Positions 1,341 to 63,884 of a stretch of 64,000 nt of DNA are shown piece by piece. Position 1 is the stretch's first letter. Each line of letters starts with the position of its first letter. The position numbers and the translations under genes were made by a program. Source of the stretch: Octopus sinensis (taxonomy: Eukaryota). The DNA is taken from NCBI RefSeq assembly GCF_006345805.1, contig NC_042999.1, forward strand, positions 59,582,001-59,646,000. The letters are read 5' to 3'. Below the pieces are notes generated by a model. It was not told the DNA's origin. It searched no databases and was given only the letters and a program-made list of their open reading frames with translations.

Positions 1341-1610
1341 GGATGTGTGCTAGCAGACACGTTAGCACGCCGGGCGAAATGCTTAGCAGTATATCGTCTG
1401 TCTTTACATTCCTAGTTCAAATTCCACCGAGATCAACTTTGCCTTTCATCCTTTCGTGGTCGATAAATTAAGTGCCATTGAAGCACTGGGGTCGATGTAA
1501 TCGACTAGTCCCTTCCTCCAAAATTTCAGGCCTTGTGCCTATAATAGAAAGGTTTATTAATATTTTTATTAAGGCGGCAAGCTGGCAAAATCGTTAGCAC
1601 GCTGGACGAA
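1341..1610 (+). mobile_element. SINE family B copy (1341-1553) plus a truncated family B head (1573-1610)
   Basis: GTTAGCACGCCGGGCGAAATGCTTAGC...GTTCAAATTCC...CTTTGCCTTTCATCCTTTCG..GTCGATAAATTAAGT; repeated many times in the window. Confidence 0.85.
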
Positions 1611-2960
1611 GGAGTCGTGTTTTTTTGTGACCAAGTTGTTCAACTGGATTTATTTACCTGTCGAAGGTCTCCCGTGAGGGCGAATCCTATTGTTAAGCAT
1701 TATTGTTGAATTTTTGAATTATTTGTTACTGTTCTTTTGTCAGTATATTATATTTGTTTTCATCCCCATTTGTGGGTGAAGTAAGAGAAAGAATGGACAG
1801 TGGACCAGTATCAGCCGGAAGCTATGCTGCAGCAACTGGAATGAGTTTAACAGCGGATGTGTTGCAGGTGCGAGAAATTAAAATGGATCACAGGAGGTTG
1901 AAATAATTCAACAAACTCTTGGAAAAGGATGGTACCAACCTAAAGTTAATACCACCAGAAGGATTTACAGCAAATATAATGAAGCGGACAGTGGTATAGA
2001 GAACACTGTCCCTGAAGTCAAAGAAAATTGAAATAGCCTTAGTGGAGGCTATAGAAGAATGCTTAAAAGAGGTGAAGAGCTTCATATTTTATACAAGAGG
2101 GAAGAACTACGGCACATTGCAGATGAGATTCGCCAATGAGCAAGAACCGATGAACCACTCCACTGTGGCGCTGAGAACACCAGAGTGGGTACTTCGTCCG
2201 GCCTACTGTGGGAAACGTGTGGCCAGAGTAAGGATCGGCAGAGTGCCCCCTGAGATCGAAGAAGAGTGGCTGGTGGCAGCCATCCTTTTCAATATGGAAG
2301 AAAAAGTAAAGATACTAAACGTAATAAAAACGAGTGAGATGAACTGATGGGAATATGGACTGGAGGTGTCGATCCAGGTCAGTTTGCCGGACCTTCATAA
2401 CATAGCAGAGGAGGTGAAACCCCTAGAAGATATGAATTTGAGAGTGGTGGTGGAGGGAAAACATCGAAACTGCTACAAGTGTGGAGTACGGGGACACATG
2501 AAGGCAATGTGTCCCCAGAAACACAATGACGATGTAATGGAACAAGATCAACAGAGCGAGAAGGAACAAAACGACGAAGAGCAAGATCCAGTATGTGAAA
2601 AGTGTTCAGAAAATGCGGAGGAACAGTTGATGGTGGCGAAGAGAAAGAAGAAGAGGGAAGGAAGTGTGGGCTCACCACCAAAGAATCCACTAAGGAAAAG
2701 AAAGTACTGAAGAAAGCCCAGCAACATCGAAGAGAACCAGCGTGGAGGAGCAGGTGAAATTGCAGAAGAGAAAAGAAGTAAGACAGAAGATGCCAGTAGC
2801 ATCGAGGGAGGTCAGGAGGGAAGAGCAGACGGGACTGCACAAACGACGAAATGAGAGTGAGGCACGTCGGAAGATGCCAGCAGCATCAAAGGATGTTCAA
2901 ATGGGAAAAAAAAGTGGGATTGTAAAAACCAACAGACATAAAACAAGTACCAACAACAAC
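1611..2960 (+). mobile_element. L1/Tx1-like non-LTR retrotransposon 5' UTR + ORF1 pseudogene (CCHC zinc knuckle)
   Basis: ATG at 1793; ORFs 2042 and 2366 are in the same frame, separated by stops. CYKCGVRGHMKAMC is a CX2CX4HX4C knuckle. It aligns by eye to ORF1 at 60951 (RTVV, RG..YGT..RF, P.Y.G.R..RVRI...PPE). Confidence 0.8.
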
Positions 2961-2989
2961 GAATTCACACTTCATTTTCGAACGTTTTC

Positions 2990-3680
2990 GTGACCCAGCT
3001 TGATGAAACGATGGATGTTTCCAGCTTAGTTCAACTTTGCATCTATGTAGTTATGTACATAACACTCATCAGGAGGACGAATTCCTGTTTTGCGAAACAC
3101 TCGGCACGAAAACAACCGCAAGGGAAATATTTAAAAAAGTGGAAAAGTTTTTGAGGCACATGGTGTCAAGTGGGAACATGTTATTGGCGTGTGCACTGAC
3201 GGCGCCTCGACGATACTTGGATGCCGTTCTGGTTTTCAGACTGCGGCGAAAGAAAAATCCCTAGGTACTTTTGGTACACACTGCACAATTTATCGACAAG
3301 CACTAGATACCATGCCTCATGAGTTAACGGATGATCTGAATTATCTGTTTACAGCGGTGAACTTTATCAAAGTAAACGCACTCAACTCTCGTCTATTTGC
3401 CGAGTTGTGCAAAGAAAGTGATTCTGAATTCAAAACGTTTCTGTTGCACTCACAATTGAGATGGCTTTCGAGAGGAGAAACAATGAAAAGGTCTTCCTTC
3501 TGCGAAACGAAGTCCACGATTTTTTACAAGATGCCAAACCAGATTTGCCCGCCAAATTCTCCTATGTTCGTTTTCTGATCTGCTTGGAATTTTGGTGGTC
3601 ATATTTGAGTCACTGAATGCCGTCAATTTTTCACTGCAAGGGAAAGACAGAACCATGTTTCTTTCTCATGCGAAACTTAT
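2990..3680 (+). pseudogene. hAT transposase fragment (Buster/Charlie, ZBED5/SCAND3-like), frameshifted
   Basis: QLDETMDVS, CTDGASTILG, HCTIYRQAL, VNFIK..ALNSRLF..LC and LLHSQLRWLSRG motifs across frames. Confidence 0.88.
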
Positions 3681-4852: not shown

Positions 4853-5690
4853 GGATCTTTTCCTTTTGAACGGCACATGTCAACACAATTTCTAGTTAAC
4901 TAAACACTTTTAAACTTCGTATACTGGTAGAATGTGTCAAAATAAAACATTTTTTTCTCTTGGTATTCTTGAGAAAATTGTAATTTGTAAGTTTAACGTA
5001 GTTTAATTTTTCGAATTTTAACCAATCAATTGCCTCTAGTGAGCTAAAATCATTTGCTGCGTCTAAAACTGAGACAACATCCTGTCACTAACCCTAAACC
5101 TAACCCTCACTCTCACCCTAACCCTAAATTTTAGCCTTTCGTTTTTTTTTTCTTAATTGTTAAATTAATTTAAGGATAACAATTAAGTAAAAAAAAACGA
5201 AAGGCTAAAACGAAAGCAATGGAAAATAATTTAAACAATTAACAAACAAAATAATTCTATAATTTTATACACACGCTTTCCGTACGTATACATTACGAAA
5301 GGCTAAAACGAAAGCAAAAACTCAAAACAAAAACAAAACGAATAATTTTAGACACACGCGTAACAATTAAATTAATTTAACAATTAAGAAAAAAAAGAAC
5401 GAAAGGCTAAAATTTAGGGTTAGGGTTAGGGCGAGGGTGAGGGTTAGGGTTACTGACAGGATGTTGTCTCAGTTTTTAGATGCAGCAACTGATTTTAGCT
5501 CAATTAGAGGCAATTGATTGGTTAAAATTCGAAAAATTAAACTACGTTAAACAAACGATTTACAATTTTATCAAGAAAGCCAAGAGAAAAAAATGTTTTA
5601 TTTTGACACATTCTACCAGTATACGAAGTTTTAAAGTGTTTAGTTAACTAGAAATTGTGTTGACATGTGCCGTTCAAAAGGAAAAGATCC
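4853..5690. mobile_element. Fold-back MITE with ~320-bp TIRs, 8-bp TSD and internal telomeric hexamers (possibly Merlin-type)
   Basis: Ends GGATCTTTTCC...GGAAAAGATCC; arms about 4853-5172 and 5368-5690; TSD TATACAAA at 4845-4852 and 5691-5698; TAACCC/TTAGGG-type repeats at about 5088-5126 and 5414-5451. Confidence 0.9.
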
Positions 5691-5715
5691 TATACAAATA
5701 TTGTTTTATAGCTTA

Positions 5716-6098
5716 CAATTCTCTTTTACTCTTTTACTTGTTTCAGTTATTTGACTGTGGTCATACAGGAGCACCACCTTTTAGTCTAGCAAATCGACCC
5801 CAGGACTTATTCTTTGTAAGTCTAGTACTTATTCTATCGGTCTCTTTTGCCGGACCGCTACGTTACGGGGACGTAAACATACCAGCATCGGTTGTCAAGT
5901 GATACTGGGGGGACAAACACAGACACATAAACACACACACACATATATGTATTTGTATATACGACGGGCTTCTTTCAGTTTCCGTCTACCAAATCCACTC
6001 AAGGCTTTGGTCGGCCCGAGGCTATAGTAGAAGACACTTGCCCAAGGTGCCACGCAGTAGGACTAAACCCGAAACCATGTGATTCGTAAACAAACTAA
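5716..6098 (-). mobile_element. SINE family A lacking its first ~25 nt
   Basis: Reverse complement of the family A consensus; on the minus strand it starts at TAGTTTGTTTACG, equal to consensus position ~26. Confidence 0.85.
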
Positions 6099-7200
6099 TT
6101 TATTTCATAAAATTTGTCATATAGACAGTACAAAGATTGTATAGCTTTGCGGGCTGGACAAACACATTAATGAATGAAAATGAAATAAAATGAATAAATG
6201 AGAGACGAAGCCCAACACCCGCCGATTGGACTTTTCTTGAAAACATTTTCTTTTTTTAAAAAAATCAACATGAGGTGTTTCAAACCTCTTACAAGAAGGA
6301 GGCACTAAAACCTCTTACTTAACATGTTTTTTTTAAACACACAATTGAGGTTATAAACCGCTACAAATAATACAATAAGATGAGGTTTCAAACCCTCTAA
6401 CGAGGCTTTTTCACCTCCTACTCATCGATATATCCATCGATATATTCATCATTACCTTCAATGCCGCTTGAGTTCCTGTATCCCACCATTTCCCATGCCT
6501 CACTCATGTAGGACATGTAAGTCGTGTAAGGGCCACCCGGCCATATGCGACACTCGTCCCCATATCCTTTATGCCTTTCCCACAAGGGAAACCTTATGAC
6601 CCCACAGCTATCTGCGGAGGCCATTCGGGATCCTGTGTGAAGGGCATATCTACTGTTTCTTTATGTTCTACTATTTTTCCACCTCTCCGCCCTTATAGAA
6701 AAAGATAATTAATTCATTATCTTTAAGCGTGGGGATCGTTTCTTCCACCGTGGGTGGCACAACTTCGGGACATGCAGACGGCACATCATCTCCCCACTCC
6801 CTGCGATGACCCGTTCTTCTTCTTTTCTTCCTGACTTCGGGAGAGTGGAGCTCTTACGCTTTGTCCGGAGTCTCTCCCCCACCTCCCGAAGCCTTAGGGT
6901 CCTTCAACGGGCAACAATAGTTGCCCGCCTTCTTCCTTTTTAATCCACCCCTCCTTTTGACCGGGTAAGGGAGGTGGCATCCAGAGACTTCCAGGACCTT
7001 ACCATGGTCCTGGGGAAGTTCTTTTTAATGTGGCCTGGCTGCAGGCACGAGTGACACTTGGTGGGTGGGGGACGTACCTCAAGTATCACTGCAGCCAGCC
7101 ATTTAAAAAAAATCTGGCAAAACCAGATCTGTTGCGGCCGATGGGGTCCACAGGGTCAAAATCGCTTTTGACTCTTCCCAATCGTTCGCCGACAATACCC
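6099..7200 (-). mobile_element. Degenerate L1/Tx1-like ORF1 element followed directly by a 3' UTR (possibly ORF1-only)
   Basis: Minus strand ~7085-7012 reads VILEVRPPPTKCHSCLQPGHIKKNFP (decayed CCHC knuckle, same context as VVVEGKHRNCYKC and VQVEGRKPTCYAC). A basic RKKRRR tract follows; the element ends GAAATAAA at the SINE junction. Confidence 0.6.
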
Positions 7201-7439
7201 TTACATTTAAGAGCCCATGTGTATGTTTTATTTCTCGATTTCTTTCTCGCCAATCGAGATCCAAACGTAGATCCAGGGTTTTCTCATTGGAATTTCAAAC
7301 ATCATCAAGATATAAGTGCATGTGTGTGTGCCTGTGAGTAAAGTTTTGAGTTAGATTATCTGAAGATTTGTGTTTTGTTTTATGTATGTATTCTCATGCA
7401 TATAGTTGCACGTCTAGACGTGTGCATATGTACTGGAAT

Positions 7440-30866: not shown

Positions 30867-32800
30867 TTAAACTTGGTCTAAATATTTTATGAAATATAGT
30901 TCTTTATTTTGGCGTTGTGTGAAGGTTGCGTTGTCACTGAATTTATAGAGCGGGTTAGTTGTAAATTTCGGATTTACATTTCCAGCACATCTATCTATGT
31001 GTCCGCTGACCGGTATTTTGCGGTAATCAGGGTTTCTAATTTGTGATTTATGCACCGCCATCCTGTTACGTAAGCTATTTTTTGTATGGCCTATATACTG
31101 CCTATTGCAGCCTGCGCATGTTATGACGTAAATTAAGTTTTCTGATGCGCAGGTGAAGTTTGTTCTAATGGTGAACTGGTGGCCTTGTTCCAGTATAAAT
31201 TCTAATCCTTCTTTCAAGATGACACAGATTCCGCAGTTGGGCCTTCCACATTTTCTAACTGCTGGTTTTGTGGTTGATGTTGAGTGCAGTGTAGCTTGGT
31301 TTAAAATCCTTTTCATGGATTTTGGTTGCCGTTTACTTTTAATGATGGTGTGTGTTTCGAGGATCCGGTTCATCTTTGGGTCTCCCTTTAGTAGGGCTGT
31401 GCTTTGTAGTATGGTGTTGAAGGCCTCATTGTTGAGTGGGTTGTGTGTAGAGATGTAGGGAAGGGTTTTTAATTGTTCTTTCTTTTTTGGTTTTGTTTGT
31501 CTCAGGTCTTCTATACTTAATTTAAGTACCCGTTGGATTGCACTGTCTATTAGGGGCTGTGGATAGTTTCTATTTGTGAGTGTGGTTCTAAGTTCCTGGA
31601 GACGTGTGTGTCGGGTGTTTGTGTCTGATATTATGGTGCAAATCCTTCTAGCTAAACAAAAAGGGACATTCATTCTAGTGTGTCGTGGGTGGCATGAATC
31701 AAAGGGTAGGTACTGTTTAGAGTCTGTCGGTTTATAGTAGATATCTGTCTCTATTTTGTTGCCGGTTTTCTTAATGAGGATGTCTAAAAATGGTAATTCT
31801 TTTTCGTTGTGGTCCATCGTGAATTGTATATTGTCATTTATTCCATTTAATAGTATTTTAAATTCCTCAAGTTTCTCTATACCTTTGTCCCAGATGATGA
31901 AACAGTCATCGAGGTATCTTTTCCAGTTGTTATGGATATAGGTGGCGAAGGTGTTTCCATATTTCTCGAGTGTCATCCGGTATAGTATTTTCTCGAGGTA
32001 TCCCATCACTAGGTTGGCAAAAGATGGTGCAGTACGCGTGCCCATCGCTGTTCCCGATCTTGCCTGTAGAAATCATTGTCAAAAATAAAATAATTGTTCT
32101 CTAAAATGAATCTAAGTCCTTCTATTATAAGGTCTTTGTTTATGCGAGTTGGGAGTTCAAAGGGGTAGTTATTCAGCCAGAAGGTGATCGTTTCTATTCC
32201 TAGGTTGTGAGGGATGTTAGAATAAAGATTAACTACGTCGAATGATACTAGAAGGGTTTTCTCATTGACTCTTTTAGGGAGGTGGTTGAGCATATCTATA
32301 TCGTCTCTTACGTAGCTTTTGATGTGTTTTAGGAAAGGTTTAAGAAGTGTGTCTAAGAAATTGCTGAGGCGGTGAGTTTCACATGCTGGCCCTGCTATTA
32401 TCGGTCTTAGTTTAAGATCATTTGGTGAAGGGATTTTGATGAGTGTGTCGGTGGATGTTTTGCACGTTTCTCTAATGGTTTGGCTTTTGTGTACCTTAGG
32501 GATACCATAGAACAAACTCGATTTGCATTTGAAGTTAGTGATGTATTCATACTCCTTGTTCGTGAGTCCTTCTTGGTATGTGTTGATTAATGTCCTAAGG
32601 TTATGCATTATTTTTTGCTGGTTATACTGTTGGGCCCTTTCATAATACGTTTCATCTCTTAATAGGGATAGCACTAAATTTTTATAATCGTTTGTATTCA
32701 TTATTACTATCGCGTTGCCCTTATCTGCCTCCTTAATTGTTATTGTTTTGTCTTCTCTTAGTTTGATGAGGTCATTCCATTCTCTTTTGTTGAAGTTAGG
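30867..32800 (-). pseudogene. PLE reverse transcriptase-GIY-YIG endonuclease polyprotein, one frameshift near 32050
   Basis: ORFs 32009-32701 and 30867-32045 join at the Q..G.AMG motif; the frame is open upstream to the DKG motif. Confidence 0.9.
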
Positions 32801-33139
32801 GCTGTGTTTTTGTTTCTTGATGAATTGAAACGGGAAATTAGTTATGTAGTCACAATAGCTTCATAAAGATATTTACACTTTCTAGGATGGTTGGAAAACA
32901 TATATGTGATTTGGCTGATGAATACTTGACATTATATTTGCTTCGTCTTCCTCCTTATTCTGTAAACGACCCCTGCGATGAAACTGGTACCCATGTGTAT
33001 CGGCATTAAGGAGCCATCCTTTTTTCTTGGCCAACATTCCTGGCGGCCATGGCAAAACGCGGCAAATGCATAGTCAATACAGACCGACGGAGACCCTTCA
33101 TGAAGCGTGTTTGGAAAAAATACACCGAAAAGTACACTG

Positions 33140-37130: not shown

Positions 37131-37631
37131 AAAGAATTTCATGCCTTGCTGCTGAGAGGAAAATTTTTTAAACAAGATTTGCAGAGCATCATATAAAATT
37201 GAAATAATTGCCGAGGGGCGAACACTCTGAAAATCTCTGGCTGGCCATAAAATCACTGCTGCAGGAACGAGATGGGAGTATACCCGTTCCATTACCAAAG
37301 CCACGGAGAAAGCTACTAGATTGTGTTAGAGAAAGAGCAGTGACGCATAGTTTGTTGCTACTGAGATGCAAACCCTGGACTTTCATTAAAGTTGGTTAGG
37401 TCAAGTGGAGAAAGGGCTCTGATGATCAAATTCCGGAAAACCTTTAAACATAAGGAACATTCCTGATGATGCACACTACTAATTCCAAGAAAGGTATTTT
37501 CAAACCAAATCTTCTATTATTGTAACGCCGATAAATAAAGTACTAGTTAAGTACTAGGGTTGATATAATCGACTGTACTCCTTGCGCCAAAATTTATGGT
37601 CTTCCTCCTAAATTTTAAATTTATATATTTT

Positions 37632-38442
37632 TTCTACTCTAGGTACAAGGCCCGAAATTTTGGGGGAGGTGGCAATCGATTAGATCAACCCCAGTACTCA
37701 AATGGTAATTAATTTATCGATCCCAAAATGATGAAAGGCAAAGTCGACCTCGGCGGAATATAAATTCAGAACGTAAAGATAGACGGAATACCGCTAAGCA
37801 TTTCGCCCGGCGTGCTAACGTTTCTTATTTCTTTATTGCCCACAAGGGTCTAAACATAGAGGGGACAAACAAGGACAAAAGGATTAAGTTGATTACATAG
37901 ACTTCAGTGCATAACTAGTACTTAATTTATCGACCACGAAAGGATAAAAGGCAAAGTCGACCTCGGCGGAATTTGAACTCAGAATGTAACAGCAGACGAA
38001 ATACCTATTTCTTTACTACCCACAAGGGGCTAAACACAGAGAGGGCAAACAAGGACAGACAAACGGATTAAGTCGCTTATATCGACTCCAGTGCGTAACT
38101 GGTACTTCTTTAATCGACCCCGAAAGGGATGAAAGGCAAAGTCGACCTCGGCGGAATTTGAACCCAGAACGTAGCGACAGACGAAATACCGCTGAGTATT
38201 TCGCCCGGCGTGCTAACGTTTCTTATTTCTTTACTGCTCACAAGGGCCTACAAACAGAGGGGACAAACGGATTAAGTCGATTATATCAACTTCAGTGCGT
38301 AACTGGTACTTATTTAAACGACCCCGAAAGGGATGAAAGGCAAAGTCTACCTCGGCTGAATTTGAACTCAGAACGTAACGTCAGACGAAATACGGCTACG
38401 CATTTCGCCCGGCGTGCTAACGATTCTGCCAGCTCGCCGCCT
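37632..38442 (-). mobile_element. Multimeric SINE family B (four ~185-bp units)
   Basis: AAAGGCAAAGTCGACCTCGGCGGAAT at about 37735, 37948, 38132 and 38336; a single complete head at the 38442 end. Confidence 0.9.
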
Positions 38443-46900: not shown

Positions 46901-47661
46901 GGACTACACAGAATAACGTGATATTCAGTTACAAATAGAAAACATCTAAAATGTCAAAGAAAACAGGAACAATTGAAAAGAAAGAACGGATTGGGTCTCG
47001 GCAACATGCCCGAAACGATAGATAGAAGGTAAGTTTTGTTCAATATATAATTTTACAACTGGCTAATATTAGGTAATGTTGCATACTGTAATAATTTATT
47101 TAATTTCAAATTTCTTGAGAACTGAATACAAATGAAATGAATACTAATTTTCAAAACGAAAATATTGATTACGTTAAAATTAATTTGAATAAAACTAATT
47201 TAGGTATATGCAATATGTTATCAATAACAATAATATTGTTTAATTATTAACAAGTTTATAAAGGTAACCTTATCTGATTATATCAAAAGTGGCAAAGGTA
47301 TGTTCTCAACATTACTTGTCATGTTACAGGTAACGTTCTCTATTATGTATTAAATAAGGGAAATAAATCCAGTAAGATCAAATTTATCTGCCTATAGTAG
47401 ATGGACAAAGAATGAGGGGTGTAGACACAATGCTGTTCCTATTACTAGAGTGTGCTCAGAGCTGCAGATTAGCAGAATTGGTAAGTTGTTGAATGAAAAC
47501 GCTTTAGGAAATTTAGTTAGGGTCAGTTATAGTAGGAGTTCAAATGCCGACTAGGTCAACTTTGCCACGCATCATTTTGGGCCCCATAAAATAAAACCAG
47601 TCAAAGACTACAGTCGATTAATCAACTAGCCACCCTCCACAAATTCCTGTCTTTGAATATT

Positions 47662-48056
47662 CTTTTCTACACTAGTCACAAGGCCTGAAATTTTGGGGAG
47701 GAGGCCAGTCGATTGATCGATCCCAGTATGCAACTGGTACTTAATTTATTGACCCCAAAAGGATGAAAGGCAAAGTCGACCTCGGCGGAATTTGAACTCA
47801 GAACGTAGCGGCAGACGAAATACCTATTTCTTTACTACCCACAAGGGGCTAAACACAGAGGGGACAAACAACGACAGACAAACGGATTAAGTCGATTACT
47901 TCGACCCCAGTGTGTAACTGGTATTTAATTTATCGACCCCGAAAGGATGAAAGCCAAAGTCGACCTCACCGGACTTTGGACGCAGAACGTAACAGCAGAC
48001 GAAATACGGCTACGCATTTCGCCCGGCGTGCTAACATTTCTGCCAGCTCGCCACCT
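47662..48056 (-). mobile_element. Dimeric SINE family B
   Basis: Two units sharing one head. Confidence 0.88.
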
Positions 48057-48315
48057 TAATTATTATACTTATGTTATGGCCACGAATGCGTCGTTAGAGT
48101 GCTGGACGAAATACCTATTTAGTTACATTTTTCTGCTTTCAAATACAACTGAGGTTTACATAAGTTTCTTCTTTTTTTTGTCTTCAGTCTTTTCTTGGGC
48201 GATTAAATAAGGACCAGACGTGTGTATTGTCCATAGATTCGTTTATACCCCAACTCGTGAAAATAACTACGTGCGGTGGTCTTGTGTTTACGTTTGTTAT
48301 TTTATATCATAAAAG

Positions 48316-48712
48316 TCAGCGAAATGACAGAACCGTTAGCACGTCGAGCAAAAAGCTTAGCGGTATTTCGTCTGCCGTTACGTTCTGAGTTCAAATTCCG
48401 TCGAGGTCAACTTTGCCTTTCATCCTTTCGGGGTCGATAAATTAAGTACCAGTTACACACAGGGGTCGATGTAATCGACTTAATCCGTTTGTCTGTCCTT
48501 GTTTGTCCTCTCTGTGTTTAACCCCTTGTGGGTAGTAAAGAAATAGGCATCTCGTCCGTCTTTACTTTCTAAGTTCAAATTCCACTCCGGTCGACTTTGC
48601 CTTTCATCTCTTCGGGATCGATAAATTAAGTACCAGTGATACACTGAGGTCGATGTAATCGACTAGTCCCCTCCCCCAAATTTCAGAACTTGTGCCTTTA
48701 GGAGAAAGGATT
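48316..48712 (+). mobile_element. Dimeric SINE family B
   Basis: Two units; inverted relative to 47662-48056. Confidence 0.88.
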
Positions 48713-50467
48713 ATTTTATTTCATACGTATTTATTACATTATTCTACATACGCATTACATTAGACAATGTCTGTGATTTCTCTCTCGGTCATAAAGAATG
48801 AGATATAAACAACGAAATAAAAATACAAACGAGAATCGAACTCATGTTTCCCTGCTTAAGCCGAAATGTCCAATTTTCTTCAGCCATTCTTTTCATGCTA
48901 CCCACTTTTATATTACGATCTCAATGGTAATACTGATTTACTCACCAACAAAGATATAGACTTTTCGACGTATCATATTACAGTGTTACATTGTATTGAA
49001 AACAGGCAATGGACTTAGGTCAGTTAGCCTGACCTCATTTCAATTCATCCATCTCATGATCTCATCAGAATTCAGATTCCTTTCTAATTAGCTGAAGTAA
49101 TTACAAACAAATATTTTAGCGAAATTTTAATTAGAAATATTTATTAATTACATTTAGAGGACCAGACAAATAGAAGAGAGAATGTATATATATATATATC
49201 AAATCGTCTTAAATGTAATTATGGAAAGGAAAGCTAGACTCTGCAATTGTGTAATACCTCATCATCTATAAATAATCAGATATGTTAAGAAAAGAATAAT
49301 GAGTAGTTATGCATTTAACTGCCTAACGGCAATATGGCCTGCCTCGCTTTATATAATTGGCAACACGAAACCTCTCTCTAATTGCATAAAAATATTTGGT
49401 AAATAGTTTCGATATGGCGAGAGTCATATGATGAGCAAAATAATAATGAATATTTCGCTTGAAAATATCGATGGTTCGATTTCTGAAACTAGCATTGTAG
49501 TTGGCAGAGACTAAGACGTTTCTCTGCCAAAAGTTCGGAGAAACTCACAGAAAGTTTTGTCGTGATATCTTAGTCTCGGGAGGTAGAACAATAGCCATGG
49601 CTGTTTGGAGGGCATTCGTAACTGGTGAGAAAAAGTTATTCTCAGCTCAGAGATATCGTAAGTCACATTGCTTGTAACAATAGATTATCCTAAGACCAAC
49701 CAAGGATCAGATCTACAGCCTTTCTAGATTTTTTTTTCTTTTCTACTATAGGCACAAAGCGAGAAATTTTGTGGGAGGGTGCTAGTCGATTACATCGACC
49801 CGAGTACTCAATTGCCATTTTATTTTACCGATCCGAGTGGGGTGAAAGGCAGCGTCAACCTCGCAGGGATTTCAACACACAATGTAAAGTCGGAAGAAAT
49901 AGCATTAAGTATTTTGTGCGGACAAAATACTTTGAGGTATTTCTGTCAGCTAGCCAACTATATAACCCCTCACATTAAAAATGAATAATCATTGCCCCGC
50001 AATGCCGAATTCAGCTTCAATCTTTGGGTGGATCCGAAGAAGTGCTGGGTTGTACTGCTTTTATATAGAAGTGTTCACTATTAGTTTCATTTCTAATCCA
50101 AGTTTACCCTGATCGACTAACCCCTCTCTCACCCCAAATTTCAAATCTTGTGTATGTCGTAGAAATGTTATTACTAGAAATTCTAAAAGCAGTGAGGTGG
50201 TGAAATTGTTAGCGCGTTGACTCCGACGTTTTTTCAACTCATAGTGCAGAGTGGATGGTGGAATGGCTACACCATAGTATCTACTCGGCAATTTAACGAC
50301 TTGCTTTATATATTTAATATTTCAAAATATGAAAGATATATCATGATGTTCTACGAGCAAAACACCCCCCGTCTAATGGACAGTGCTGAGTTGTGAAACA
50401 TTTAAACCAAATTTTCTCAAAACAACTTGTCCGACCGTCCCATAAGCCTCCCCTTTGAGAAACACTG

Positions 50468-50874
50468 AGGGGACAAACAAGGACAGACAAAGGGATTAAG
50501 TCGATTATATCGACCCCAGTGCCTAACTGGTACTATATTTAATCGACCCCGAAAGCATGAAAGGCAAAGTCGACCTCGGCGGAATTTGAACTCAGAACGT
50601 AGCGGCAGACGAAATACCTATTTCTTTACTACCCACAAGGGGTTAAACATAGAAGGGACAAACAAGGACAGACAAAGGGATTAAGTCGATTACATCGACC
50701 CCAGTGCGTAACTGGTACTTTTTTTAATCGACCCCGACCGGATGAAAGGCAAGCCGACCTCGGCAGAATTTGAACTCAGAACGTAACGGCAGACGAAATA
50801 CCGCTATGCATTTCGTCCGGTGTGCTAATGTTACTGTCAGCTCGGCGTGCTAACGATTGTACCAGCTCACCGCC
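50468..50874 (-). mobile_element. Multimeric SINE family B
   Basis: Two or more units of the same ~185-bp repeat. Confidence 0.88.
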
Positions 50875-51925: not shown

Positions 51926-52829
51926 CATATGTGGGCACAGGACGTCATGTAACGTGTACAACAAAAAAGTACGTAGCACGAGTACACTGAACATGAACTA
52001 TTCTTTTCAACAACGAAAGACATAAATGGAAAACAAAACAAACAACATAAAGAATGACCCTTCATCAGTTGTTGGTTGAATTTCTACTCTCATATTTCGA
52101 GCATTTAGCAACAACATACGCTTTCGACAAAACAGTTGCTCCCGCAAAGGAAATTAATTAAAATTTGGGAATTGGCGGAGGGTCAAAACAAACAGGACAG
52201 TGAAATCAAACAGGAAGGGCTGCCAAGCCTGAGCCAGGTTGTAGTGGCGAACGCGTGAATCAAGCTAGGACAGGAGACAAACAAGAACACGTCTTCCTTG
52301 TTCCATCTACAATGGACAGAAAGAACGAAAGATGACCGATGGTCTCGTGGGAACCACGTGAGCAAGGGAGTAGGAGTGAGGGAAAGAGAGGGACAGAGTA
52401 ATAGGATAGAATAGCGGGAGAAGAGGATGTCGGCACCAGCATTACCAACAGCTTCCCTAAGGTCCACGGTAGGAGACCTAACAACTCCTGTAGCAGCAGC
52501 CAAGGTCCAGTGTCACCGCCAGCTACAATGGCATTCACAGCACCAGCAGCGATAGCGGCCCTAGCAGAGACACCAGTGGAACCACAGCTAATGTCACTGC
52601 TAGCAGTAATGGCAACTCTCCAACCAATGCCGAGGACCATAATAACAACAACGCCTTCACCATAAACGACATTGGCGATACCATTACCGACGCTACCATC
52701 AGCTCCAACGACGCCAACACCAGCAGTCCCGATTCCCACAACAAGAATTTCGTCGGTAACAGCAGCAACAACAACAATACCAGAAGGTACAGCACCGACA
52801 ACACACGCCCACGGAGATACATTGGATGT

Positions 52830-53171
52830 TTCGGGGACTCGTTCATGCAACATCATTCCAACCACAGGTCCTCCTTCAGAATTCCGGAAAGGACACGCGT
52901 AACATCACTGGCCAGACACGTCTGGTTACTAAGAGATGATGGGATCCAATACTTGATCTCATGGAAAATCCTCGGGAACTCAGGCCCCTACATCAACGAG
53001 ACGAAGCGTTGCAAGTTATGCATAGCTGAACGCTTGAGAATCCTAAAAGATTCACTCGAACCAAGAACACACTTGACTCCAGAAAAGATATTTTCGGGCC
53101 ATGTTTTCATTTCAAGAGGTTCCCTGTTAGTCATTTGGAGCCCGCAAAATTGCTTCACAGCCGGACATTAA
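52830..53171 (+). pseudogene. PLE GIY-YIG endonuclease C-terminal fragment
   Basis: TSLARHVWLLRDDGIQYLISWKILG..PY..TKRCKLCIAER aligns to TQLSNHIWSLRDKG..WKILA..PY..RCGLCDMER at 57223. Confidence 0.8.
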
Positions 53172-56305: not shown

Positions 56306-57076
56306 CTATCCGTTTTCTTTAGGGGACCAAAAACGTAACAGAAATTTAGTCACATGTGGGCATGATCCGAAAAGCTCTGTCCTTGTATTTAGACATGTGG
56401 TAGGGTCTAAGCTGCTTTTCCAGATAAGCCATCTCTCCATGTCGCATAAAACCCACCTTCCGCTGCCGTTAGTATAGGGCTTACATCTGGCCAAAATCTT
56501 CCATTGTATGTTATAATCGACACCTTTATCTCTTAAAGACCAAATATGATTGGATAATTGTGTCGCTTTTCTTTTGTTCCAGTGCCTAAAGCTCAAAGTG
56601 TGGTTATTGAACCTGGCCTTGAAATTACCCTCTGTCAGGCCCACGTATTTCTTCGTCGAAACGGTGTCTTTAGTGGTTATAGAGTTTACGGTAGCTTCAT
56701 ATATGATGGTCTTGGACATGCAAGCTCCATTTAGCGGGCACAATTCTTTATTCCTGCATGAACAGCTGTTTTCTTCTTGTGTTTTTTGTATGTTATGATT
56801 GATTATGTTTTTAAAATTGGTAGTTGAACTAAAACTAATTTTTAAATTGTGTCTATTAAAGAGTTTCCTATAAGCATGGTTAACTGGAAAATGTCTATCT
56901 ATCAGTGCTAGGAAATATTTACCTATATTGAAGGCCACCTCGGGTGAGTAAGGGGGCGTAAACCAGATGACCTTCCTATTTCTATTATTCCTTTTCCTTA
57001 TTGTTGGGCTGGTGATAGGTGTATATTTTATTTTTTCGCTAAAACCACTATCTTTTAAAGCTTTATTATAAACTGT
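56306..57076 (-). CDS. PLE RT-thumb/linker + GIY-YIG endonuclease, 5'-truncated (left arm)
   Basis: Open frame YNKALKDSGF..IWFTPPYS..CSCRNKELCPLNGAC..IIYEATV..YVGLTE.NFKARFNNH. Confidence 0.8.
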   Translation of the reverse strand, partial: TVYNKALKDSGFSEKIKYTPITSPTIRKRNNRNRKVIWFTPPYSPEVAFNIGKYFLALIDRHFPVNHAYRKLFNRHNLKISFSSTTNFKNIINHNIQKTQEENSCSCRNKELCPLNGACMSKTIIYEATVNSITTKDTVSTKKYVGLTEGNFKARFNNHTLSFRHWNKRKATQLSNHIWSLRDKGVDYNIQWKILARCKPYTNGSGRWVLCDMERWLIWKSSLDPTTCLNTRTELFGSCPHVTKFLLRFWSPKENG

Positions 57077-57084
57077 TTATTATA

Positions 57085-57855
57085 ACAGTTTATAATAAAG
57101 CTTTAAAAGATAGTGGTTTTAGCGAAAAAATAAAATATACACCTATCACCAGCCCAACAATAAGGAAAAGGAATAATAGAAATAGGAAGGTCATCTGGTT
57201 TACGCCCCCTTACTCACCCGAGGTGGCCTTCAATATAGGTAAATATTTCCTAGCACTGATAGATAGACATTTTCCAGTTAACCATGCTTATAGGAAACTC
57301 TTTAATAGACACAATTTAAAAATTAGTTTTAGTTCAACTACCAATTTTAAAAACATAATCAATCATAACATACAAAAAACACAAGAAGAAAACAGCTGTT
57401 CATGCAGGAATAAAGAATTGTGCCCGCTAAATGGAGCTTGCATGTCCAAGACCATCATATATGAAGCTACCGTAAACTCTATAACCACTAAAGACACCGT
57501 TTCGACGAAGAAATACGTGGGCCTGACAGAGGGTAATTTCAAGGCCAGGTTCAATAACCACACTTTGAGCTTTAGGCACTGGAACAAAAGAAAAGCGACA
57601 CAATTATCCAATCATATTTGGTCTTTAAGAGATAAAGGTGTCGATTATAACATACAATGGAAGATTTTGGCCAGATGTAAGCCCTATACTAACGGCAGCG
57701 GAAGGTGCGGTTTATGCGACATGGAGAGATGGCTTATCTGGAAAAGCAGCTTAGACCCTACCACATGTCTAAATACAAGGACAGAGCTTTTCGGATCATG
57801 CCCACATGTGACTAAATTTCTGTTACGTTTTTGGTCCCCTAAAGAAAACGGATAG
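57085..57855 (+). CDS. PLE RT-thumb/linker + GIY-YIG endonuclease, 5'-truncated (right arm)
   Basis: Same protein with the CxxC intact (RCGLC); the annotated start at 57223 is GTG and the frame is open from the hairpin centre. Confidence 0.82.
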   Translation, partial: TVYNKALKDSGFSEKIKYTPITSPTIRKRNNRNRKVIWFTPPYSPEVAFNIGKYFLALIDRHFPVNHAYRKLFNRHNLKISFSSTTNFKNIINHNIQKTQEENSCSCRNKELCPLNGACMSKTIIYEATVNSITTKDTVSTKKYVGLTEGNFKARFNNHTLSFRHWNKRKATQLSNHIWSLRDKGVDYNIQWKILARCKPYTNGSGRCGLCDMERWLIWKSSLDPTTCLNTRTELFGSCPHVTKFLLRFWSPKENG

Positions 57856-60395: not shown

Positions 60396-60561
60396 TACTA
60401 ATTATATATATATATATATATTATATATATATATATATATATCTAAATCAATTATTACCCATACGGTTTTTTCCATGCTTGGCTACTTGATATGATCGTT
60501 ATTTGAAATATATAAGTATATAAGCGCAGGAGTGGCTGTGTGGTAAGTAGCTTTGCTAACC

Positions 60562-63500
60562 TCACTGACAGAAGAGTGACTTTGCTTACCGTACTACGGT
60601 TTGGACGCGTTTTCTTCCCGGTAAGAGTTTTGCTGTGTTGTTAATTGTTGAATTCCTACTACTGAAAATTTGCCTTTAAACGCTGCTGAACTGTCTTGTT
60701 CTCCGGTTTTACCGGGAAATAATTGAATAATTTCTTACCGTTGAACTGTTAGCCACTGTGGCTTGTTATTTACGTGACTATATATAGTCCTGCCAGACTA
60801 TTTTCGTGCCCCTCCCCCGAATGGGGGTGGGAATTGGAATTTTTGAACTGCTTTTTTGAACTACTTTGGAAGAAAAACTTTCTATAGGTTTCCCAGTTTT
60901 GTGGGAAACCAATACTCGTAATTTTTGTGTTGTCTAATTTCAACAGAATAATGTCTGTTGAAATTATTCACGAAAGTAGTGCTCTTGAGGAGAGCAATGT
61001 TAAAAAATTTTCTGAGGTAGCCGCGGTGGCTGCCGAGAACATTGACATCGATGTCAACCAGCTCGTCGAGCTATTTAAAAGAATGCAAGAGGAGGGTGGT
61101 GATGTTAAAATATCACCCTCCGCCAGTATCGTGGAGACCGAGAAGCGGACCGTAGTGTTTAAAACTTTCTGTCCACAAAGCAGAAGGTTCAAACACTTTG
61201 AAAAAAGCACCATCGAGAAATGCCTGTCCCCGATTTGGAAGGACATCGTGTACGTCGCCAAGGGACGGGCATATGGCACTGTGGATGTCCGCTTCTCGGG
61301 GGAAGAAATGGCCCGCGGGCATTCTGTGAACCCCCTAAAAACCAAGGAGGTGGTACTTTTCCCAAGCTATAGGGGACGCAGGACGTCCCGGGTCAGGATT
61401 GTAGAAGCCCCGCCGGAAGTAGATCCGTAGAGGTAGTGGTCGCCCTATTATATAAAAGGGCGGACAAAATAAAAATACTAGAAGTACATGCTCTACCCCT
61501 CGATTTTGGCTCGGGCGTAACATTAATATATTAATTCAAGGAACAGCGGAGGACCTACAGCTCCTTCCTGAGAGGGTGCTCGTGGGCGAGAACGTAGCCC
61601 TCAGGGTACAGGTCGAAGGCCGAAAACCCACCTGTTACGCCTGCGGCAAAAAGGGCCACATTCGTGTAGACTGTCCAGACAAGTAAAAGAAACCGCAGAC
61701 ACCAGGCCCCTCAGATAATAAAAAAGTCCCTACCCTTGCAAACACACCTACCCCTACAAAAACAAAAAATCCCACTCCTGCTGTTACGGTGCCAACCCCA
61801 AAACACGACTGAAGAAAAAACCCAGCCCTCGCACTCACAAACCCCTACACTATTAAACCTCCCACCCCCCCCCTAAAACTGCGGCGCCTACCGAACAATC
61901 TATTGCTACCCCAGACGATACCATGGAGGTATCAGAGGGGGGATTTACACCAGTTCGTAAAAGAATTCGTGCAGCATCCCCGTCCACATCCCCTACAAAA
62001 AATAATAAAAACAAAGACACACCACAGACAGGGAAAAAAAAATCCCGCTCAACTGGCCCAGAAAAAGAAGACAAAAAAGAAAATGAACTCATATTAATTG
62101 AATTCGACACACAAGACAAATACATAAACGATATTGTGGTTCAGCATCAGTCAGCAAGACTGTACAACAAATACAAAGATCGAAATAGACACGCGTGGAT
62201 TGCGGAAACAACGTTCAAACAATTAAAAGACAGACACCCAACACCATCCGGCATGTCGCGAACTTGCCGGACTATCTGAAGAAGAGGAGAAAGAAGGGGC
62301 CCACAAACGTGTGGTGAGGTCGGCCCCCCCCTCTCCAACGAAATGTAAGTAGAACTTTTACTTTTTGTAATGGCTTCGCTTAACCTTGGTTGTTTAATGT
62401 GCGTGGTCTGAGTTCGAAGTGGAAGCAGGCTTGTTTCCTCGACGACGACCTCAGATCACATGATATACATGTGATGGTTGCTACAGAGACCAAGCTGGAC
62501 AGCCTACAAACCTTCTCGCCTCTCCTGAATGGCTACGAGAAAATCATGTCTCCTGGCCAGACCGGAGGGCGAGGGGGCGTAGTGGTACTGATCCGTAAAG
62601 ACTTGGCTCTACAGACAAGTACAGTCTATGTAGACCCAGAAGGTGGGCTGGTCGTCCTTGATGTGACATACAGCAGTAAGGCCTTCAGGTTGATCGGACT
62701 CTATGCACCTTGTGCTAGAGGTTTCCAAACTGATTTTTATCGGCGCCTAGAGGGCTTTCTCGTGACGTCGAAGACTTTAGTGATATTAGGGGACTTTAAT
62801 GCTATCGTTGACGTACACATCGATAGCGTTGGCTCGATCTATAGGAAAGTGAACTCACGTCTCGTGGATCTGCTTAAGCGGTTTCAGCTAGCAGATCGTT
62901 ACAGACTTTACCATCCGAACGTCCCAGAGTGGACCTGGATGAGTGGCGACGGAAGGTTCAAGTCTTATCTAGACAGGATAGTGATAAGAACTAGAGATAA
63001 GTCTAGTTTTAGTTGTCCACAGCTCGTCCAGGTGCCCTATACTGACCATAGAATGGTCACGTGTAGACTGGACATAGATAGCACACTTAAGATAGGAACC
63101 GGCTACTGGAAGCTGAACAAGTCTATTTTGACACGCGAGGCATACCGTAGCCGGATTAAGGTGTTAGTGCAGAGGGCGTTAACCGGAGCCGTGGTTAATA
63201 ACCGGTGGTGGTTCACCCTCAAAAGAGCCATTCGATTCGAGTCCATTAGATTTAGTAAACAACTAAGACTAGATAGGGCTAGAATAGAAGGGCAACTAGT
63301 TAAGAACTTAGAGGAGGCGTTGAGGTTGGGCTCTGCATCTCACATTTTAGCGGCGAGAACGGCATTAGACCGTCACCTCAAAACCAAACATGAGGGATGT
63401 AGAGTCCGGGCTAAAGTACGAGCATTGGGCCGTGAGGGAATTAATGTTGCCGGATGGGCCCGTACGATAGAAACACAGCGTGGAAACGATGCCACAATTG

Positions 63501-63731
63501 GGTCTCTGTGATGAAAAAACGGATGCACGATCAAGAAGCGGGACGAGATGTGTGAGGCACTTCACAAGCACTTCGCCGAGTTGTTCGGGAGGTGCGGGAC
63601 GCTGGATCATGGTGAGGCCCTTAGGGACTTCCTGTCTGGTGGCCCGCGCCTCTCGACACGAGAGGCTGAGTGCTGTGAAGGGCCAATCACAGCCGAGGAA
63701 GTAATCGAGGTGTTGGGCAAGTGCCCCGGGG
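60562..63731 (+). mobile_element. L1/Tx1-like LINE: 5' UTR, ORF1 (CCHC) and 3'-truncated ORF2
   Basis: ORF1 ATG at 60951 with CYACGKKGHIRVDC at 61632; ORF2 starts at 62370. Confidence 0.9.
62370..63731 (+). pseudogene. Tx1/L1 ORF2 APE endonuclease domain plus linker (RT missing)
   Basis: NVRGL, TETK, GGVVVL, LYAP, LGDFNA, WTW, SYLDRI, TDH, GYWKLN, GPITAEEV. Confidence 0.9.
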
Positions 63732-63884
63732 AGAATAGTGAAAGTCAAGTTTCATCATATTTAGACAGGAAGAACTATTGCCAAATTTTTTCTAATTCTT
63801 ATTTGACCTGGCTCAAATATGTCACGTGGTTACAATGCTTTCGTTCGAGGCAGTCGGAGCTCGTTTTCTCTACCAACCAACATG

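Follow-up and report, generated by a model that had tools for sequence, protein, structure and literature searches.

Elements with a LINE-type ORF1 adjoin the 5' heads of SINEs in a 64,000-nucleotide stretch of the Octopus sinensis genome (contig NC_042999.1, positions 59,582,001 to 59,646,000; this whole stretch is hereafter the window). This raises two questions, namely whether the heads are target DNA at all rather than a part of the elements, and, if they are, what the elements recognize in them. We find that SINE heads are true, base-exact targets, and the reality of the targeting system is strongly supported.

Elements and junctions in the window

The window contains nine matches to the family SINE-A and 25 to SINE-B. 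The three ORF1-bearing elements that adjoin them are, as a preliminary description of the window had it, all co-oriented with the SINE; no single element has both of its junctions inside the window. The LINE of family F1 (60562..63735, + strand) represents the 5' 3.2 kb of a 5.44-kb element and is 98% identical to the copy L034. It is interrupted after 63735 by about 1.2 kb of other DNA, then resumes, and reaches its 3' end about 3.2 kb past the window, where SINE-A follows from +23. Upstream of it are the 39 nt of SINE-A, with one extra T, that were seen from the beginning (60523-60561). The part from +1 to +22 (60523..60544, +), with a box A-like TGGC at +11, is pre-existing target DNA, whereas the last ~16 nt (60545..60561, +; SINE-A +23 to +38 with the extra T) are the 5' copy of the target duplication, and are likely to be mostly borne by the element's own RNA.

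The second element, of the ORF1-only family F2 (1611..2960, +), stands directly behind a SINE-B head from +1 to +38 (1573..1610, +), as was also evident from the start, and +24 to +38 of this head (1596-1610) is the part duplicated in its relatives. The 3' end of this copy is lost, being cut off by a DNA-transposon-like coding fragment (~2960-3680) without a Pfam match, which we take to be hAT-like. The third element, of the ORF1-only family F3 (6101..7215, -), is 5'-truncated (full length ~2.0 kb) and has no upstream SINE head; its tail is followed directly by a SINE-A remainder (5722..6100, -). The preliminary description recognized this 3' junction, placed the restart of SINE-A at ~+26 and arrived at a ~13-bp duplication; as SINE-A actually restarts at +23/24 (window position 6100), the duplication is 15-16 nt (+23/24 to +38). 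It also took all three elements for LINEs, which holds for the F1 element, whereas the elements at 1611 and 6101 are not full LINEs but members of ORF1-only families ~2 kb long.

No tRNA gene or ribozyme was detected in the window with Rfam and ARAGORN, which returned just repeat-driven miRNA matches below gathering. A long form of SINE-B (37631-38441, 47656-48060, 48319-48715 and 50490-50847) has a 3' tail resembling that of the LINE clade, and makes head-to-tail arrays that rejoin at ~+15-20 or +48; SINE-B may be mobilized by the LINE clade of F1. Penelope-like pieces lie at 30867-32860 (-), with a GIY-YIG match, 52494-53171 and 56306-57855, the last with a tandem duplication of a C-terminal ORF. 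At ~4855-5695 lies a long, nearly palindromic element that by eye resembles a MITE and has short TAACCC-like runs.

Both reading frames of F1 are broken in the window copy. ORF1 (60951..62279, +) encodes two predicted RRM folds and a CCHC knuckle: the zf-CCHC profile was recovered, and the predicted model (pLDDT 73) matches tandem RRMs (E=1e-4), while ZCCHC3-type RRM profiles gave no match. ORF2 (62370..63735, +) encodes an APE endonuclease (PF03372, E=8e-13) and the start of the RT region; in L034 both the RT and the zf-RVT are present. F1 belongs to the L1 group of non-LTR retrotransposons: its ORF2 has the features of that group (PF03372, PF00078 and PF13966), the ORF2 of an autonomous sister (L180) finds L1 ORF2p as its best PDB match (E=3e-61; R2, E=3e-20), and its insertions have target-site duplications, a fixed 3' end and 5' truncations. 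Tx1-clade ORF1 proteins combine RRM folds with a CCHC knuckle, an architecture that F1 ORF1 fits by its predicted model. One criterion applied to Tx1 elements is a preference for a repetitive target in more than 20% of flanks (PMC4494074, in its accessible part), and here SINE-A follows 79/84 F1-type ends and 25/30 F3 ends. In the accessible part of PMC1950540 the endonuclease hairpin loop of Tx1L has 11 residues. The loop here looks shorter, with nine residues separating the anchoring T from the S, a placement made by eye without the Tx1L sequence, and loop length is not known to define the clade. An RT tree, built without a named Tx1 reference, unites F1 and its autonomous sisters in one strongly supported in-genome clade, which likely belongs to Tx1.

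One landing site in SINE-A heads

A 5' query made of LINE sequence only yielded 94 candidate F1 copies, and in all 40 that were scored SINE-A sequence lies directly upstream of the F1 5' end, as a SINE-A head in 37 and as the tail of another element plus a short SINE-A tag in three. At the other end, 19 of the first 20 long copies continue into SINE-A from +23/24, the remaining one being broken, and among the next 20 the 3' end is visible in 17, with SINE-A next in 17/17. A flank-blind pattern of the F1-type tail, which excludes sites with A at the last position and admits a few tails of other families, gave 84 matches; scored by eye, 79 of these are followed by SINE-A +23 to +38 with at most ~3 differences, and none by SINE-B. 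The five exceptions comprise L360 and L363, which are rearranged SINE-A heads, L080 and L362, which resemble the site but are not SINEs (L080 is a mimic carrying a 16-nt duplication), and one unrelated site (L361). In L360 an F1-like fragment has inserted, at a shifted site, into a tandem array of bare SINE-A heads with units of ~30 nt. Junctions scattered at random, with SINE flanks no more frequent than SINE coverage predicts, would put ~0.006 of the 84 ends in the SINE-A site (~380,000 SINE-A copies from the window density of 9 per 64 kb, one co-oriented base, p ~7e-5), against the 79 observed. The duplication starts at +23/24 and ends at +37/38 of SINE-A, and 5'-truncated copies keep the same 3' junction, with the head joined between +22 and +39. 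The early proposal that SINE heads serve as targets is hence borne out to the base, two different SINEs being entered at the same coordinates (+24 to +38).

The alternative that head and SINE body form one composite element with the LINE, moving as a unit, now seems hardly conceivable. Pairwise divergence among 19 F1 copies is 1.3-1.6% at the LINE ends, 9.7% in the SINE body and 9.6% in the SINE head (16 heads; three truncated or tandem copies omitted), and since divergence in the SINE halves is thus about six times that of the LINE, the SINE is target DNA; this contrast already largely refutes the chimera. SINE-A heads differ between copies and co-vary with their own 3' remainders: the head marker T5 occurs with the body marker G38 in 3/3 split copies against 2/31 (p=0.002), as it does in free copies (p=0.004). 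Private SINE variants are present on both sides of the element in L033, L364, L138 and L140, head positions +1 to +22 are missing in tandem cases, and the site is common to 13-21 unrelated tail groups. What does agree with a composite is the ~16-nt tag that travels with the element, so that this part of the idea stands while the head from +1 to +22 and the SINE body are target. A composite of two element tails is also found at two loci: L109 and L128 have the same tail of another family, 9 nt of target and 215 nt of F3 3' end, with differing non-SINE 3' flanks.

The tag emerges from a comparison of 47 full-length copies with both ends. On the 3' side +35 is A in 24, T in 22 and G in one, whereas on the 5' side it is A in 45/47; 20 of the 22 targets with T at +35 show A on the 5' side, and the 5' duplication copy ends in TAACC in 45/47, whatever the target variant. 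Variants at +23 to +31 are confined to the 3' side in eight of the 47, to the 5' side in none, and shared by both sides in one (p=0.008); without the odd junction L047 the 3'-only and 5'-only counts are 7 to 0, and L032, with different variants on the two sides, fell outside the filter. The window copy at 60545-60561 likewise differs from its own 3' side (L031), an unusual 5' variant is common to two loci (L002, L008), and in another family L304 and L331 have a common one-base deletion missing from their 3' sides. From these differences between 5' and 3' variants we infer that the RNA carries the target copy of its parent, and full-length copies would thus likely begin with a short segment of landing-site sequence. 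Within a poorly resolved tree of F1 the 5' tag variants do not cluster. Head positions +8 to +22 diverge by 2.0% in split copies against 8.5% in free ones, a conservation that fits either recognition or a longer stretch carried by the RNA. A decayed second copy of the target sequence in the F1 5' UTR (60572..60590, +), nearer to the target in copy L379, is likely to be an older captured duplication. Folding of 60545-60660 indicated no special structure (z=0.74), and no ribozyme is indicated in F1 elements. Contigs of the runs X1 and X5 span the head-LINE join; that either run is RNA is a guess. The tag also calls for caution with such LINEs, whose consensus 5' ends and seeming target duplications are open to misreading.

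ORF1-only followers and relatives at other repeats

The SINE-A site is used well beyond F1. Exact junctions of element tails with SINE-A number at least 555 genome-wide, compared with 62,272 exact intact sites, an occupancy of ~0.9%. Of the first 46 junctions, six had been resolved before and four came later in the order; the 36 that we sampled fall into 13-21 tail groups at 80-90% identity. A SINE head is present upstream within 6.4 kb in 22 and was not found in 14; 22 loci are ORF1-only, seven have ORF2 remains and seven have neither. The combination of an ORF1, no ORF2 and a LINE-type tail thus characterizes 22/36 sampled junction loci as well as F2 and F3. Of 30 F3 3' ends, 25 join SINE-A, one joins a tag plus another element, and four are off-target, all of the latter beginning with AGTA within one base; a head or tag is found upstream in 13/20 long F3 loci, mostly ending at +36/37. 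The ORF1s of the ORF1-only elements are merely 25-27% identical to that of F1, yet they have the same tail and target, so the target follows the tail. This points to mobilization of these elements in trans via the common 3' tail.

Different families are stacked in tandem within one SINE-A, with the duplicated target between them, at L048, L162, L166, L104/L338, L120, L310, L341 and L357. Mosaic-looking elements, in which one family seems to supply the 5' part and another the 3' part, occur at L304, L330 and L331. At L005:1750-1835 (-) a sequence that we take to be tRNA-like, with an apparent intron and without an ARAGORN call, ends ~10 nt upstream of a targeted SINE-A.

Relatives of F1 are found at several other repeats. 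Among 26 matches to the 5' end of the F2 element at 1611, the seven best sit behind a SINE-B head to +38, and the other 19 share the UTR in part. SINE-B restarts at +24 after the 3' end in L138, L140, L142 and L177, two of which have private variants on both sides, so that the duplication has the same coordinates in SINE-B and SINE-A (+24 to +38). Many other relatives of the 1611 element lie in LTRs ~30 nt behind a TATA-like motif; in five loci with both ends the duplication starts 29-33 nt after this motif, and L147 and L150 are similar. ORF1-only relatives occupy LTRs of several families (L144-L156, L269-L298), and in L147 and L150 a motif like a primer-binding site and sequence resembling gag come next. 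The 28-29 nt spacing of a downstream promoter element fitted one or two families only and was dropped. For neither the SINE-B nor the LTR groups did we find an ORF2 partner: patterns for an autonomous SINE-B partner gave two and one matches, the ORF1 search gave ORF1-only elements, and of 69 matches to a SINE-B junction pattern the 30 inspected were mostly SINE-B tandem joints, with no autonomous partner.

Autonomous sisters of F1 with an intact ORF2 (L179-L208, L380-L385), retrieved with an outside protein query, end in (TATC)n-type 3' runs in 27/29 loci (L184 is degenerate, L192 has none), and (TATC)n is present at the 5' end too in the five of five checked. L193 ends in (ATT)n on its 3' side only; with the 5' side unconfirmed, (ATT)n was not retained as a target. 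The RT halves of the sisters are 63-65% identical to that of F1 and their endonucleases 51%, and they differ from F1 in the endonuclease hairpin loop, which affects specificity in L1 according to the accessible part of PMC1950540.

Recognition of the site and known target-specific elements

We consider it probable that recognition is by sequence and specific to the family, with the APE endonuclease of F1, an L1-group element, likely reading SINE-A just behind box A and cutting at one base in its heads, and with the ORF1-only relatives likely borrowing the enzyme. A bottom-strand nick at +23/24 would prime reverse transcription, and the top strand would be cut near +38. The full-length RNA would begin inside the target copy of its parent, at or before about +25, and the ~16-nt tag of each new copy would anneal to the top-strand overhang and replace the target's own version, while ORF1-only elements would be moved in trans through the common 3' tail. 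The equal coordinates in SINE-A and SINE-B could be due to both being tRNA-derived with a common GT(A/T)AG(T/C)A there, and sister lineages may have drifted to other repeats.

The preliminary description favored instead the position or structure of Pol III units over sequence. Under such a scheme, resembling TRE5-A and Ty3, elements would dock on SINEs bound by TFIIIC/TFIIIB and cut at the 3' edge of box A. The entry of two SINEs of different sequence at the same +24 to +38, the fixed orientation and the preference for younger SINE-A are what it would predict. However, Pol III units are not entered whatever their sequence: none of the 84 F1-type ends is in SINE-B or in a recognizable tRNA gene, even though free SINE-B copies (157) outnumber those of SINE-A (86) in 1.9 Mb of fetched DNA, and the SINE-A subfamily with A at +26 accounts for 37/86 free copies against 3/84 F1-type ends (p=3e-10). 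The SINE-less mimics L080 and L362, the shifted site in the head array L360 and the (TATC)n targets of the sisters likewise speak against it; L360 and L080 in particular appear to argue against dependence on box B or on TFIIIB/TFIIIC. Known Pol III-guided elements moreover insert outside the gene, in windows of several bases (PMC5911963, accessible part), whereas the present site is internal, between box A and box B. The absence from SINE-B, the avoidance of A26, the mimics and the microsatellite sisters are all accounted for by sequence reading, and we regard guidance by Pol III factors as very unlikely. The A26 subfamily and most SINE-B are older (medians of 14.5% and 13%, against 5.5%), so that an effect of Pol III occupancy on young copies is in part a confounding factor; young SINE-B (<=5%) amount to 8/118 and are not entered by F1-type ends. 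In its tail the SINE-B-targeting F2 is closer to the LTR/microsatellite group than to F1, and +24 may accordingly have been arrived at on two separate occasions, for which a positional cue would account. Position may thus make some contribution, in view of the age of the avoided copies and of this recurrence of +24.

It is also conceivable, if unlikely, that RNA-DNA pairing makes most of the choice, a weakly specific endonuclease nicking NAG(T/C) and target sequence at the RNA ends selecting successful priming and 5' joining. In favor of this we note the element-borne 5' tag, the decayed second tag in the UTR, the 3' end of L047, which brings AAGTAGCT into a site 11 nt upstream, and the AGT/AGC at the start of the duplication that is common to SINE-A, SINE-B and diverse LTRs. 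Yet tagless 5'-truncated copies keep the same 3' junction, target-private variants are kept on 3' sides from +25 on, and TTACC and TAACC targets are entered alike by F1. A preference of F1 for TAACC-type targets was considered and dropped, both types being common among intact sites. Pairing thus likely helps 5' joining and is not needed for the 3' junction.

A possible, albeit rather doubtful, further reading is promoter capture, in which the clade lands at the transcription start of other mobile elements, its RNA starting inside the captured target. The LTR insertions, in several families unrelated to one another, lie ~30 nt behind a TATA box at a NAGT resembling an initiator, and TAAGT at the SINE-A site looks like an initiator too; an RNA starting at the target's A would predict the element-borne tag. 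If this is true, the lineage hops between SINE heads, LTR starts and microsatellites by means of a short endonuclease motif and RNA-borne tags, and offers a natural series for LINE specificity switching. Close relatives with different targets in one genome in any case make the switching of APE endonuclease specificity directly testable. At the genome scale, a SINE of the most abundant repeat class here is a base-exact landing site for young LINEs and their ORF1-only followers, and because an insertion separates box A from box B it would likely silence that SINE copy.

In the literature searched, which did not extend to Repbase or subscription journals, we found no LINE described as targeting a SINE, and an earlier Repbase description is possible. 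The closest counterparts are APE-type LINEs of the Tx1 clade that prefer another dispersed transposon and have relatives with different repeat targets: Tx1L in Tx1D of Xenopus, Tx1-Mar in the crocodilian Mariner-N4_AMi, and Tx1-8_Crp and Tx1-4_AMi in LTR retrotransposons (Kojima 2015, PMC4494074). The accessible text of that survey names no SINE target, its supplement being outside the search; the present system differs from these elements in its tRNA-derived SINE head, one-base precision (79/84), ORF1-only swarm and element-borne tag. Active L1-Tx1 families have been listed in an octopus (PMC13282606), in a report whose accessible part does not contain the word 'target'. Other Tx1 elements have radiated over repeats, Kibi and Koshi into microsatellites and Keno into U2 snRNA (PMC4494074, accessible text), and the sisters described here, flanked by (TATC)n on both sides, recall this; unlike those simple repeats and host genes, the SINE-A target is a mobile Pol III-type unit.

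A tie to Pol III-type promoters, with orientation fixed in the case of TRE, is shared with TRE5-A and TRE3 of Dictyostelium and Ty3 of yeast, which, according to the accessible part of PMC5911963, enter outside the gene, TFIIIB/TFIIIC setting the distance, and use many tRNA genes, unlike the present elements, which enter between box A and box B and discriminate among SINE families and subfamilies. Dada DNA transposons also use orthologous positions of different tRNA-type genes near box A, ascribed to primary sequence similarity (PMC8869645, accessible part); they differ in being DNA transposons that enter tRNA genes rather than SINEs, at positions 8-13 or in the anticodon arm. The followers resemble the HAL1 half-L1 elements, which are ORF1-only non-autonomous LINE derivatives (PMC5753468, accessible part). 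In contrast to HAL1 they have a specific target, where they are more numerous than autonomous copies (22 vs 7 of 36). R1 and R2 use upstream rRNA sequence in 5' joining. Like these rDNA elements, which are co-transcribed with their target (PMC4494074, PMC5786205, accessible parts), the present elements likely have flanking target in their RNA, and tandem stacking at one site is common to both; the target here is dispersed and not rDNA, and no ribozyme is indicated. Target-specific Tx1-like LINEs are a known phenomenon, and what is new here is a variant that homes into SINE heads.
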